Shown one piece after another: positions 42,429 to 46,411 of a stretch of DNA of 64,000 bases. The notes under the pieces are model-generated. The model was not told the origin of the DNA and ran no database searches. It worked only from the letters and a program-made list of their open reading frames with translations. The first letter of the stretch is position 1. The number at the start of each line of letters is the position of its first letter. Position numbers and translations under genes: made by a program. The stretch spans positions 5,088,001 through 5,152,000 of the forward strand of contig OZ244587.1 in NCBI GenBank assembly GCA_965218095.1, written 5' to 3'. The stretch is from Candidatus Poribacteria bacterium. GTDB lineage: Bacteria > Poribacteria > WGA-4E > PCPOR2b.

Positions 42429-43043
42429 CTATTGACTTCTCAAGCCGCCTTCTCCCACGCACGCTTTGAGTCCCTCGACAAACACCTGAAAACTTTTCGA
42501 TTTGTTCCGGTTCGGTTTCATGTGTTGAGCGATTTTTCGTGCTACCTTAGTTTTGTGTAACCGCTTTGGATAATATCGTCTCAGCGCACGCCATAGTGCT
42601 TCAGATGTACCGTTCTCAATTGCATCAGGATCCTGATATTGGGCGTTTCTTGAAACTCTAGGGTAAGCGTCTCGCAAAGCCTCAATATCTCCAAAGAACC
42701 ACGCCTCTAATTCTTCAATTGCCAATCGATTGACCACTTGAAAATCCCCTTCTTGGGACGCGCTAGATTTCGTCACAAACCCCGCAGCACACGCTATTGC
42801 TTCTAACTGTGCCTTCAGTTGGAAACAATCTTCGCGATCCTCATCAATAAGGACCATAATTCGACGATTATCGGCTATCGGTGGGTTGAATCCTTTCAAG
42901 AGTGTCGGCAAGTTCTTAAGCAAATCGGGTTTGCCTTGAGAGACATGGAAAGTGCAATCCACATCATCAGAAAGAATCTTAGGCAAAATGATTTTTAATA
43001 CCACTTCAGCAGAGCGTTCCTCCAGGAGAAATTCAATCTGCAT
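42429..43043 (-). CDS. DUF4276-family TOPRIM-like protein
   Basis: FLLEERS, GKPDL, LIDEDREDC, EELEAWFFGD, NKSKSFQVF; overlaps the ATPase stop. Confidence 0.82.
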   Translation of the reverse strand: MQIEFLLEERSAEVVLKIILPKILSDDVDCTFHVSQGKPDLLKNLPTLLKGFNPPIADNRRIMVLIDEDREDCFQLKAQLEAIACAAGFVTKSSASQEGDFQVVNRLAIEELEAWFFGDIEALRDAYPRVSRNAQYQDPDAIENGTSEALWRALRRYYPKRLHKTKVARKIAQHMKPNRNKSKSFQVFVEGLKACVGEGGLRSQ

Positions 43044-44703
43044 TCCCACCTCGCTTTGGACCGCCCGCATTAGTCAGCGGATCTCCAACTTCAAAGTAAC
43101 CTTCCATCCAGAGTTGCCCCAACTTCGCACCCGCATCTAGGAAATCATTGATTCCCCGCATCTCTGACGTACGTTTGCAGACCGTAAACCCCTGCTTATC
43201 TCGGTAAAGTACCCACACCTCCTCGGAGCGCAGTTCGTTAACAAAATGGGGAGAATGGGTGGTAATCATCAGTTGAGACAACCCCAATGCCTCACTGTAC
43301 TCCTCCACTAAACCGTTCAGCAGGCGCGGATGGAGGTAATTTTCAGGTTCCTCAATGCCGATTAGTTGGGGAGGTTCTGGGGCATATAGCAAGGTCAAGT
43401 ACGACAGCATCTTTAACATACCATCGGAGGCAAACTTCGCCGAGATAGGTTTTTCAAACGGCGCATCCTTAATCTTTAACAGAAGACGTCCGTCCATCAC
43501 CAGTTCTGTGTCCACCTCTTCCAAGCATGGAACCCATTCCGACAGTATCAAAAGAATTTTTTCCAAACGCTCTGGGTATCGTTCCTTTAGATACTGGATA
43601 ACATTGGGCAGGTTGTCTCCCGTTTTGGATAACCTTTCTTGCGGGCCCGCTTCTGCAATGCCCCGTGTAGCATCGGCGGAAAGATCAGAAAAGTGCCAAC
43701 CTGTAACGAAGCGATAAAGGGCACTCACACGGGGATGGAGTGCTGATTGCCCAAATCTGCTGACAGCGAGCGTTGACAAATCATTAAGTTGTTCATTGAT
43801 TTGCTTGTCTTCCTCATCCGGTATTTCACCAGCGGTAATGTGCCCTTTGCCCTCCTGAAAATCGAGGAAGCGAAACGGTCTTCCCCGACTACCGCGCCGC
43901 CATCGCAGCCACTCGGCTTTAACACACGGTCCTTTTGTATCTTCATCAATGGTCAGATGGTAGGTGATGAGTGGTGTCTTGGGTTTCTCGCGATATTTTA
44001 ACTCAAATTCAATCGGTCCATCACTGCCGCGCGTCCTTAACTCCTTAAAACGTTCCCTTTTTGCCCATGCAGAACGCAGCCCGTCCGTGAAACATTCTGT
44101 GAGAAATGCAAAGACATCGAACAGCGTTGACTTCCCGCTGCCGTTTGGCCCCAAAAAGACAGACAGTGGTGTGATTCCTTTTAATTCTACATCTCGTAGG
44201 GCACGATAGTTCCTTACACGTAATGACTCAATGTGTGGGATAAGCAGCTTCTGTACAACTAGCACTGGGAGACATTCGCGGAGCAGCTCATTAAATTTTT
44301 CATCAAATTGATCTTCAGCCGGAAGGTCTATATAAACTTGTGTTCCTAAAAATGATGGCGTTTTATCTTCCCCCAGCGCCTGACGGATTATGGGAATGAA
44401 TTTGTTGTTTCCCACATCTTCGACAAGTTTCCTAGTTACAATCATTGGCTCGTAGCCAACGCCACCTTCACCGGCGTTTGCCTTTCTCACGTAGCTATCT
44501 GTACAAATGACCAGTACCCTGTCGGAGTCTCTGATGCCACGCTCCATGAATTGTGCTAAATCATCGCCCAGACGGAGGTGCCACTGGTCAAGTATAACCT
44601 CAACTCCCTTGCGATGAAGCTTTGCACTGAGTTCTGATACCCACTGCTTATGTTCTGGCGTATCATGAGAATATGAGATGAACACCTTGGGATGCTCCGC
44701 CAT
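43033..44703 (-). CDS. TIR_2/SEFIR domain fused to an AAA_21-type ABC ATPase
   Basis: N-term KVFISYSHD...GGVGYE; Walker A GPNGSGKS, signature ASDGML, Walker B IEEPEN, H-loop TTHSP. Confidence 0.9.
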   Translation of the reverse strand: MAEHPKVFISYSHDTPEHKQWVSELSAKLHRKGVEVILDQWHLRLGDDLAQFMERGIRDSDRVLVICTDSYVRKANAGEGGVGYEPMIVTRKLVEDVGNNKFIPIIRQALGEDKTPSFLGTQVYIDLPAEDQFDEKFNELLRECLPVLVVQKLLIPHIESLRVRNYRALRDVELKGITPLSVFLGPNGSGKSTLFDVFAFLTECFTDGLRSAWAKRERFKELRTRGSDGPIEFELKYREKPKTPLITYHLTIDEDTKGPCVKAEWLRWRRGSRGRPFRFLDFQEGKGHITAGEIPDEEDKQINEQLNDLSTLAVSRFGQSALHPRVSALYRFVTGWHFSDLSADATRGIAEAGPQERLSKTGDNLPNVIQYLKERYPERLEKILLILSEWVPCLEEVDTELVMDGRLLLKIKDAPFEKPISAKFASDGMLKMLSYLTLLYAPEPPQLIGIEEPENYLHPRLLNGLVEEYSEALGLSQLMITTHSPHFVNELRSEEVWVLYRDKQGFTVCKRTSEMRGINDFLDAGAKLGQLWMEGYFEVGDPLTNAGGPKRGGNAD

Positions 44704-44780
44704 CTCCTACCTCCAATTTCATGCGAATATGAAACATCGCACAAATCTAAATACTGTTAAAAAAATCGATGAAGTCAAAC

Positions 44781-44852
44781 AACGCGAATCTCTCCTGACG
44801 ACAGTTCGACAGCAGAACGTCTCCGATTTGGGAGAGTGCAAGATTGTTCAAA
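44781..44852 (-). pseudogene. Degenerate copy of the hsdS 3' end
   Basis: With two 1-nt deletions repaired it reads EQSCTLSQIGDVLLSKLSSGEIRV vs HsdS QQSHTLSQIRDVLLPKLLFGEIRV. Confidence 0.72.
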
Positions 44853-44887
44853 CGGTTTTAACCAATCAGTAACTTCAGTAACTGAGG

Positions 44888-46411
44888 TTACACCCCCTCA
44901 AAGAAATTCTGATAGATATCAGAAAGATTCTGGTGAGCTATCGGATTAAATCCATACGCCTGTAACTCCTTATCGGCTAAGTGAATCCAATTTTCCCATA
45001 AGTGCTCGATTTGCTGACGTGTGACATTTAAGCTGATCCATAATTCCATAAGTGCTTCCGGATTACGACGAAGTAGAACAGTCGCACGCTGGGTTATATC
45101 GTTCCCTTCGTAAAGAAAAGTCAACGGGACTGTAAAGTAATATTCAGAACTTGTGTTTAAGGTGTCCTGTCGACCTGAAGCGATTAACGTCGTTAATTCA
45201 TGGATATTTAGTGCCATATAATATGCCACCAATGAAGTCTGATAGTCCAATTCATTACCAAATATGGGAGCCAACCAATCCCATTTTTCGTATGCCTTCG
45301 TTAAATACTTCCAACCTTCTAGACAATTACCACCACGAGTGCCACTAAGTAATTCGGAGTACCCTCTAAGTTGACTTGTTTTCCATACAGGAAGGGATTT
45401 TCTACCATCTGCAACAGGGATTTTAACTCGTGCAAGGCTTAGGGCGAGATCTAGCTGATTTGTGCTCAGGCTGAGACCCCCGTGCAGACTGTGATAGACA
45501 TACCCTAGTGCAAAAGATATGTTTTGCCAGTCTACGTACACGGAACGATTCCAACTTGCAATATTCAGCAGGTCATCGAGAATGGGCTTCTGATCTCTAA
45601 ACTGTTCCCTACTAGATTCAACTCCCACTAAAGCAACAGAAATTAAGGGTGAGATAATTTCAACCGCTGTATCCACAACCCGAACCAACTGTTCTTTGCT
45701 TTCTGGTCGCTGACCCTCCAACTCATTTTGTCGCCATTGTACCAAGGAATTGAATACACTTGGCTTAATTCTTTTGACGAGTTGTCGCCATCCAAGTACG
45801 TCCCCCGCACGGGCGAGCTTGATCGCAGCTAAGTAAGCTTCGGATGCAGATCCAACCTGCGCCGGGATTTCAGGCAGTTGAGTGCCTGACCCTTCAATAG
45901 GCGGTGCTTCTTGTCCAGAGGGAAGTTTAGCGAATGGGTTTTTTCCCAAAGGGGGTTTCTCTATAACTGGCACTCGATGGAGTTCATGAATCAACTTATC
46001 AAATTCCGATTCAAATTGACTGTCATTCCTGAAGTCAATATAAACTCGCGTTCCTAAAAATGTTGGTGTCTTTTCCTTTCCTGATGCCTGACGGATTACA
46101 GGAATGAATTTATCAGTTCCTAAATCCTGAACAAGCTGCGCGGTTACAATCATTCGCTCATAGCCAACGCCACCTTCACCGGCACTCGCCTTCCTCACGT
46201 ACTGTTCCGTGCAAACGACTAGTACCCTATCGGAGTCTACAATACCGCGCTCCATGAATTGTGTTACATCATCGCCCGGACCGAGGTCCCATTGGTCGAG
46301 TATCGCATCAACTCCATTGTGGCGAAGTTTTGCACCGAGTTCTGATACCCACCGCTTGTGTTCTGGAGAATCGTGAGAATATGAAATGAATACCTTAGGG
46401 TGTTCTGCCAT
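44888..46411 (-). CDS. TIR_2/SEFIR domain protein with unknown, probably helical, C-terminal region
   Basis: KVFISYSHDSPEHKRWV, LDQWDL, GGVGYE, KPPLGKNPF linker. Confidence 0.88.
   Translation of the reverse strand: MAEHPKVFISYSHDSPEHKRWVSELGAKLRHNGVDAILDQWDLGPGDDVTQFMERGIVDSDRVLVVCTEQYVRKASAGEGGVGYERMIVTAQLVQDLGTDKFIPVIRQASGKEKTPTFLGTRVYIDFRNDSQFESEFDKLIHELHRVPVIEKPPLGKNPFAKLPSGQEAPPIEGSGTQLPEIPAQVGSASEAYLAAIKLARAGDVLGWRQLVKRIKPSVFNSLVQWRQNELEGQRPESKEQLVRVVDTAVEIISPLISVALVGVESSREQFRDQKPILDDLLNIASWNRSVYVDWQNISFALGYVYHSLHGGLSLSTNQLDLALSLARVKIPVADGRKSLPVWKTSQLRGYSELLSGTRGGNCLEGWKYLTKAYEKWDWLAPIFGNELDYQTSLVAYYMALNIHELTTLIASGRQDTLNTSSEYYFTVPLTFLYEGNDITQRATVLLRRNPEALMELWISLNVTRQQIEHLWENWIHLADKELQAYGFNPIAHQNLSDIYQNFFEGV

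Follow-up and report, generated by a model that had tools for sequence, protein, structure and literature searches.

HEC-01 (Hma-embedded candidate 01) has been described by Payne et al. as a pair of ABC ATPase and TOPRIM protein that embeds in other systems (10.1101/2024.01.29.577857; PADLOC-DB v2). In the portions of that preprint which treat the pair, it is counted among the commonest cargo pairs in restriction, BREX and Hma operons, and no activity or trigger is demonstrated for it (10.1101/2024.01.29.577857). SEFIR has been documented as a single-protein defence with an N-terminal SEFIR domain which acts through NAD+ depletion (10.1101/2024.02.11.579819; Millman et al. 2022, 10.1101/2022.05.11.491447). 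The tree of related ATPase systems in the PARIS paper includes pairs of AAA15/21 and DUF4276 proteins, as its figure legend states (PMC11464382), and the description of the methylation-associated defence system (MADS) places DUF4276 in the Toprim superfamily and names Mad4 as a DUF4276 homologue (PMC12065111). Here we analyse a locus in a 64,000-nucleotide stretch of a Candidatus Poribacteria genome (the window, to which all coordinates refer), in which three co-oriented genes, called A, B and C, lie between hsdS and hsdR of a type I restriction-modification (R-M) operon. A is a bSEFIR-type protein, B and C form a HEC-01-type pair, and B carries a second SEFIR domain fused to its ATPase.

PADLOC, a check which the initial annotation of this DNA had advised, assigned A to bSEFIR (E 3.5e-79), B to HEC-01A (E 3.5e-156) and C to HEC-01B (E 1.4e-74). 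By sequence, the locus consists of two catalogued modules with the SEFIR domain of the neighbour grafted on the ATPase, and it is not a categorically new system. The initial annotation had put forward an undescribed system; as both A and the B-C pair are catalogued, that part of the proposal does not hold, while the fusion does retain its novelty, since neither the literature nor the PADLOC models were found to describe a SEFIR or TIR domain joined to a HEC-01-type ATPase, a search outside the supplementary tables of the HEC and SEFIR papers, which could list fused variants. The features of the three genes are as follows.

44888-46411, minus strand: gene A, 507 aa, PADLOC bSEFIR, overlapping the end of hsdS by 17 nt
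45962-46411, minus strand: SEFIR domain of A (residues 1-150), Glu85 codon at 46157-46159
44888-45871, minus strand: C-terminal all-helical domain of A (residues 181-507); AlphaFold2 model of the domain alone with a predicted local distance difference test score (pLDDT) of 80 and a predicted template modelling score (pTM) of 0.85
43033-44703, minus strand: gene B, 556 aa, SEFIR-HEC-01A fusion, after a gap of 184 nt from A
44254-44703, minus strand: SEFIR domain of B (residues 1-150), by sequence a paralogue of that of A, Glu85 codon at 44449-44451
43033-44238, minus strand: ABC ATPase domain of B (residues 156-556), Pfam AAA_21 and AAA_15, Walker A at 44125-44151
42429-43070, minus strand: gene C, 213 aa, DUF4276/HEC-01B, overlapping B by 38 nt (11 nt if C starts at Met10)
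42837-42845, minus strand: DED motif of C (residues 76-78), acidic Toprim-type residues

The two halves of B are matched separately and almost completely. Residues 1-145 align with the PADLOC bSEFIR profile (E 6.1e-67) and residues 156-541 with positions 2-404 of the 406 of the HEC-01A profile (PDLC04182); Pfam finds TIR_2 (2e-24), SEFIR (1.5e-14), AAA_21 (9.8e-26) and also AAA_15. The ABC motifs comprise Walker A (G185-T193), a signature-like SDG (426-428), Walker B (IEEPE, 450-454) and His483 of the H-loop, and they are kept in 24-26 of the 26 fused orthologues, which is far beyond chance. Comparison of the N-terminal domains of A and B gave 95 identical residues of 127 (74.8%), or 103 of 152 (67.8%), with a BLASTP E of 1e-69. 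At the DNA level the two SEFIR segments are 76% identical over 456 nt, with similarity beginning at the ribosome-binding site, and the domains of the window differ by a nonsynonymous divergence (dN) of 0.18 and a synonymous divergence (dS) of 0.88. Both proteins read EGGVGYE, with Glu85 as its final residue. The orientation and overlaps of the three genes, the lengths of A and B, an identity of about 75% between the two TIR/SEFIR domains, the Glu of GGVGYE in both proteins and intact ABC motifs in B had all been read from the sequence in the initial annotation and are borne out by these figures. The SEFIR domain of B is, on its sequence, a paralogue of that of A set on a HEC-01A ATPase, and this is what is new here.

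The fused domain is under purifying selection. The 250 pairs with usable dS that 26 fused genes provide gave a dN/dS of 0.205 for the SEFIR part of B and 0.125 for the ATPase part. Glu85 is kept in 25/25 A-type and 25/26 B-type domains, and Glu79 is invariant among the B-type domains (26/26). In the alignment, Glu85 of GGVGYE falls on the Glu in GGVGTE of the Bacillus cereus SEFIR domain, at what is presumably the position of the catalytic Glu in TIR NADases, and is a candidate catalytic residue.

The partner gene C matches Pfam DUF4276 (1.3e-26) and, over residues 10-205, the HEC-01B profile (PDLC04202). Met10 at 43043, the first residue matched by that profile, is the likely true start of the protein. 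Residues E17, E18, D76 and D78 are invariant in 65/65 sequences and would correspond to the Toprim Glu and DxD motifs as these are described for the superfamily (PMC12065111). C is a putative nuclease of Toprim type, and B with C has the architecture of ABC ATPase plus Toprim known from PARIS and OLD, much as had been supposed at the outset. Both marks of HEC-01 are found side by side, a HEC-01A ATPase with intact ABC motifs and an adjacent HEC-01B partner of Toprim type.

Gene A combines an N-terminal SEFIR domain with a helical C-terminal domain and, judged by its sequence, is probably a bSEFIR-type protein, a member of a catalogued single-gene defence family. Its residues 1-281 of 507 align with positions 35-285 of the 412 of the bSEFIR profile, and hmmscan against Pfam gave TIR_2 (1.8e-25, 90 bits) and SEFIR (5.3e-16, 60 bits). 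The closest solved structure of the SEFIR domain is the B. cereus SEFIR 5y8e, both by sequence (E 2.3e-25, the best TIR reaching 0.0055) and by fold (Foldseek E 9.4e-6, VIA Z 12.1). The bSEFIR family has been defined by an N-terminal domain whose HHsearch score is higher for SEFIR than for TIR, according to the text of the defining preprint (10.1101/2022.05.11.491447). For A, by methods other than HHsearch, SEFIR is ahead among solved structures and TIR_2 is ahead in Pfam bits.

The C-terminal domain of A found no convincing match. Fold searches with the domain alone gave at best Foldseek E 0.023 and VIA Z 7.0; the matches were designed helical repeats and proteins like importin, at a level that counts as noise among helical proteins. 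The model of the whole protein was matched only in its SEFIR/TIR part. A profile search of solved structures returned only SEFIR/TIR matches and one weak match to Mediator Med7 (E 6e-4), and in a protein atlas the domain scored at most 0.89, to unnamed clusters. These failures do not make the fold new. From its predicted structure we take the domain to be the probable sensor or regulatory part of A. It was found in 57/151 genomes of the phylum, in three families only. Genes of about 340-350 aa with only this domain recur, starting right after hsdS. Four of them are listed below; two of the four adjoin a SEFIR-tagged ATPase.

L074:7799-8851 (G104): A C-terminal-only gene
L106:8821-9747 (G080): A C-terminal-only gene
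L102:6195-7205 (G095): A C-terminal-only gene
L101:9039-10022 (G026): A C-terminal-only gene

The database holds at least 15 clusters of this form, of 338-344 aa. Such genes may be a split form that functions as such, or they may have lost the SEFIR domain in repeated deletions. The genome of the window contains a second A-type gene as well (G000:C1:250309-251646; L060:6307-7659), which is 72% identical to A and starts after the first ~62 residues. An open reading frame (ORF) of a DDE transposase lies directly upstream of it and a broken hsdR beside it, and neither B nor C is present; by sequence it represents the decayed remains of a second copy of this locus.

The fusion had been seen only in the window when it was first annotated, and it recurs well beyond it. 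Among 151 genomes of the phylum of the window, whose named relatives are Candidatus Poribacteria metagenome-assembled genomes, full-length fused B is present in 29, belonging to two families (6 in f1, the genome of the window included, and 23/100 in f4). A large protein collection contains, at the 90% level, over 120 clusters of full-length fusions that are 69-90% identical to B. The same 151 genomes contain 42 loci with a close but unfused ATPase of 66-78% identity. Outside the phylum, in 34 loci of other phyla and archaea (Methanothrix, Anaerolineae, Desulfobaccales and others), relatives of B align only from residues ~126-158 onward, and a DUF4276 gene or part of one follows the relative in 33 of the 34. 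Of the best 150 representatives at the 50% level, P0246 and P0265 are fragments of the B family spanning the SEFIR-ATPase junction, and a few others match the SEFIR part only, for example P0241 (A-type) and P0358 (a TPR protein). The sole other TIR-type ATPase fusion among these 150 is P0346 of Magnetococcus sp. DMHC-1 (630 aa), which joins an N-terminal TIR_2 domain (1.3e-13) to HEC-01A (4.6e-142). It resembles B in this arrangement but has a canonical TIR in place of SEFIR and an ATPase 33% identical to that of B; as it is a singleton and none of its 119 listed relatives is fused, it is an independent fusion. On sequence grounds the SEFIR-HEC-01A fusion is a conserved, lineage-limited variant.

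Comparison with the described systems delimits what the locus is. B matches nearly the full HEC-01A profile, C matches HEC-01B, and the two genes are adjacent and overlapping inside another defence operon, as expected for HEC-01; the HEC-01A profile, however, has no N-terminal domain, whereas B has 150 aa of SEFIR. A resembles bSEFIR in having a SEFIR domain at its N-terminus and a longer part behind it, and in its closest structure, 5y8e. It differs in that its last ~226 residues lie outside the bSEFIR profile, in the confinement of its C-terminal domain to three families of one phylum, and in its setting, as the published system is a single gene while A overlaps hsdS and adjoins a second SEFIR protein. 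PARIS, composed of AriA and AriB (a DUF4435 Toprim), shares the two-gene architecture, but the matches of B to AriA (E 6.6e-27 and 1.5e-22) are far weaker than that to HEC-01A, C belongs to DUF4276 and not DUF4435, the 15 PADLOC matches of C are to HEC-01 profiles without exception, AriB not being among them, and PARIS lacks a SEFIR or TIR domain. A weak likeness to MADS was also found, B matching mad3 in PADLOC (E 6.1e-21) and MAD3 in NCBIfam (NF047739, 115 bits). The NCBIfam score is well short of the cut-off of 420 bits, none of the other MADS genes is present, and the genes around the module are an ordinary hsdMSR set. Three further candidates were set aside: no profile of a PrrC/RloC-type anticodon nuclease and no NsnB of Menshen stands among the best 25 of the 141 PADLOC matches of B, NsnB appearing weakly (E 6.8e-15) for a receiver-fused relative only, and for Thoeris NCBIfam gave just a sub-threshold match at the level of the TIR domain. 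In NCBIfam no family is matched above its cut-off by A, B, C or the Schlafen-like gene of the operon described below.

The remaining genes of the array are as follows; all hsd-array genes are on the minus strand.

49768-51609, minus strand: hsdM, first gene of the operon; Pfam N6_Mtase 5e-101 and HsdM_N 6.5e-26, PADLOC MTase_I 9.2e-215
48017-49771, minus strand: Schlafen AlbA_2/HATPase_c_4 gene, 584 aa; Pfam SLFN_AlbA_2 7.1e-19 and HATPase_c_4 1e-19; 4-nt overlap with hsdM
46395-47675, minus strand: hsdS; Pfam Methylase_S 1.6e-14, PADLOC Specificity_I 6.1e-71; 341-nt gap after the Schlafen gene
39321-42392, minus strand: hsdR, last gene of the operon; Pfam HSDR_N, SWI2_SNF2 and T1RH-like_C, PADLOC REase_I E 0; 36-nt gap after C
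38324-38710, plus strand: fragment of an IS4/5-family transposase (DUF4096 E 2.7e-19), shortly downstream of hsdR, at the border of the R-M island

With hsdM, hsdS and hsdR all full-length, intact and strongly matched in Pfam and PADLOC, this is a type I R-M operon, and the nesting of defence-type genes within it agrees with what the initial annotation had reported. Housekeeping genes flank the array, and the order A, B, C recurs in many related genomes. The Schlafen gene is a conserved passenger of the hsd locus, kept at the same position in most related loci with 72-89% identity; in PADLOC it matches nothing but the Schlafen parts of pAgo-associated proteins. Megablast against E. coli genomes found no match to the locus, which is therefore not enterobacterial. 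A scan for regulatory sites was uninformative on operon structure, with 7 promoter-like sites (13.1 in shuffled sequence) and an average number of terminator-like ones. One sequencing run contains the locus as exact fragments and may stem from the source sample. Most of what the contigs of RNA libraries cover is the first 440 nt of A (45972-46411, differing at 10 of 417), with a few short pieces elsewhere; none of them bridges the SEFIR-ATPase junction of B, and they neither support nor exclude transcription of B. One contig (run X1) joins 44611 in the SEFIR-coding region of B to 46363 in that of A and leaves out 1751 nt, by which gene A would be deleted. It is probably an assembly artefact, since its shorter side has 25 letters and it falls between the two paralogous SEFIR segments, though it could also stem from a recombinant variant within the population.

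Related loci keep the frame hsdM-(Slfn)-hsdS-...-hsdR across three families of the phylum, while the cargo between hsdS and hsdR varies. The forms observed were the following.

A + SEFIR-B + C: the form of the window, which prevails in the fused loci
B + C only: L076, L077, L090, L096, L097 and L099
A + unfused B + C: L078
Two A genes in tandem + SEFIR-B + C: L002
SEFIR-B alone, without A or C, in the order hsdS, SEFIR-ATPase, hsdR: L100:8008-9672 (G119)
A C-terminal-domain-only gene + SEFIR-B + C: L074 and L106; broken in L068
A + GHKL/histidine-kinase-like genes + B with a receiver (REC) domain replacing SEFIR + C: L075:8470-12333 (G022)
A (one in L005, two in L079) + a GHKL/HATPase_c protein of 721-743 aa + a receiver-domain protein + unfused B, without C: L005:4693-9221 and L079:7697-12301 (G023)

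By gene content, the sister loci with GHKL and REC genes look like a phosphorelay-controlled version of HEC-01. In a quick IQ-TREE phylogeny of 78 ATPase rows, those of the phylum form one clade with a support of 100 in the Shimodaira-Hasegawa-like approximate likelihood-ratio test (SH-aLRT), and the presence of SEFIR requires at least 5 changes; in a tree of the phylum only, 4 changes. In the tree of the SEFIR domains themselves (24 A rows and 26 B rows), one branch (SH-aLRT 98) parts A from B, and a single old duplication is compatible with this. This split, together with the nucleotide similarity that includes the ribosome-binding site and the tandem duplicates of A in L002 and L079, points to local duplication as the origin. 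In our view the fusion arose once or a few times, probably by way of a tandem duplicate of A, and was then repeatedly lost.

How the locus would work can be proposed by analogy with PARIS and with TIR/SEFIR NADases that are activated by oligomerisation. The account that we prefer, and hold to be probable by a narrow measure, is a type I R-M operon containing two catalogued modules, bSEFIR and HEC-01, which are linked by the duplication of a domain, with the B-C pair having two outputs and A being autonomous. B would keep C inactive in a complex until a phage cue and ATP binding alter the oligomeric state of B. This rearrangement would free or activate the Toprim nuclease C and at the same time cluster the SEFIR domains of B, leading to NAD+ hydrolysis, so that one sensor would drive two outputs and the infection would be aborted. 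Alongside the pair, A would act as a bSEFIR NADase with its own sensor domain. The autonomy of A is suggested by its occurrence without fused B in 29 of the 57 genomes having A, and that of the B-C pair by unfused pairs in 21 of the 24 unfused rows of the own phylum and in more than 30 loci of other phyla.

Several points weigh against this account. Both the trigger and the proximity switch driven by ATP are proposed purely by analogy, and the only published test of HEC-01, made in E. coli, gave no defence against the phages tried, as far as the preprint's account of it goes (10.1101/2024.01.29.577857). Residues 41-48 of the SEFIR domain, which we take to be the BB-loop, are nearly invariant in A and variable in B, and for this reason the SEFIR domain of B may assemble differently; it may also be under relaxed constraint, or not be a stand-alone NADase. 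Moreover, an A-type gene directly adjoins 28 of the 29 fused B genes. Of these 28 neighbours, 25 are full-length, 2 are intact C-terminal-domain-only genes and 1 is broken, so that 3 have no SEFIR of their own. A coupled three-gene system would account for such adjacency no less well than two independent modules.

The best surviving alternative, which we consider unlikely, takes this adjacency at face value: A, B and C would be one obligate system in which the SEFIR domain of B serves as a docking or seeding module for the SEFIR or C-terminal domain of A, the ATPase sensor switching on the NADase of A, or the sensor of A switching on the nuclease. It corresponds to the TIR-TIR contact put forward in the initial annotation. 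An A-type gene stands directly upstream of 28 of the 29 fused B genes; over 50 distinct ATPase rows of the phylum, which are relatives of one another, it does so in 24 of 25 fused rows and in 3 of 24 unfused ones. This adjacency may be inherited synteny, as the test of correlated evolution between SEFIR on B and an adjacent A had only 4 independent contrasts, of which 2-3 go in the same direction and 0 in the opposite one (p 0.25-0.5). The C-terminal-only proteins speak for this alternative, intact ones of ~350 aa standing beside SEFIR-B in G080 and G104 and a broken one in G108, and their 15 or more database clusters fit as well; nevertheless, they are also found away from any SEFIR-B (L104). 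The divergence of the BB-loop-like stretch of B from that of A is a further point in favour, and SEFIR domains are heterotypic adaptors in IL-17R/Act1, as the introduction of one of the SEFIR papers recounts (10.1101/2022.05.11.491447). Yet A does without fused B in those 29 of 57 genomes, SEFIR-B of G119 has neither A nor C, and the decayed second A of the window's own genome has no B or C. A complex prediction for full-length A with the SEFIR domain of B gave 0.21 (mark 0.32) and speaks neither for nor against binding.

A more general version of such coupling would see the N-terminus of HEC-01A as a swappable port, occupied by SEFIR here, by REC in the sister loci and by TIR in Magnetococcus. 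Heterotypic SEFIR assembly would then couple the sensor to its bSEFIR partner, and one event would lead to NAD+ depletion together with Toprim attack. We regard this as doubtful.

Less probable again is the idea, proposed in the initial annotation, that the module guards the surrounding R-M system. Ocr triggers PARIS, and a PARIS-like ATPase might likewise sense anti-restriction proteins of the Ocr/ArdA type and fire when restriction is blocked. The argument is one of position: the module lies between hsdS and hsdR, A is translationally coupled to hsdS through its 17-nt overlap, and the same placement was found in most related loci fetched with long flanks; PARIS is also a related system of ABC ATPase and Toprim (PMC11464382, in the part cited above). 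Against this, 15 of the 24 unfused phylum rows with close B-C pairs, and most loci of other phyla, had no hsdS or hsdR match and no hsd match, respectively, in the DNA fetched, which weakens the idea. HEC-01 itself was defined by embedding in Hma and is treated as self-standing cargo in the relevant sections of the preprint (10.1101/2024.01.29.577857), and no feature of an anti-restriction sensor was identified in the module.

The weakest alternative, a non-catalytic SEFIR domain by which the ATPase would be oligomerised or auto-inhibited, with the Toprim nuclease left as the sole output of B-C, could draw on the variable BB-loop-like residues, the higher dN/dS of the SEFIR part and the REC domain of L075, regulatory rather than effector, at the same N-terminal position, but is improbable given that Glu85, Glu79 and the other core residues common to A and the B. 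cereus SEFIR are kept, for which a pure scaffold would have little reason.

On the preferred account of two modules linked by a duplicated domain, the locus offers a HEC-01 variant that carries an NADase-type domain, and NAD+ loss would be a built-in read-out, easy to measure, of activation of the ATPase. With such a read-out, the trigger and mechanism of all of the HEC-01 family could become accessible to experiment. In addition, the locus documents stepwise evolution of defence, in which the effector domain of a neighbour appears to have been duplicated, put on the sensor of another system and long kept, with several losses and with replacement by REC in sister loci. Should the SEFIR domains indeed couple A to B, the locus would provide a case of adaptor-style SEFIR signalling in a prokaryote, a counterpart of the signalling between receptors and adaptors by the same domain. 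The main value of the finding lies in the handle that it may give on the unexplained HEC-01 family and in a clear case of modular evolution of defence.

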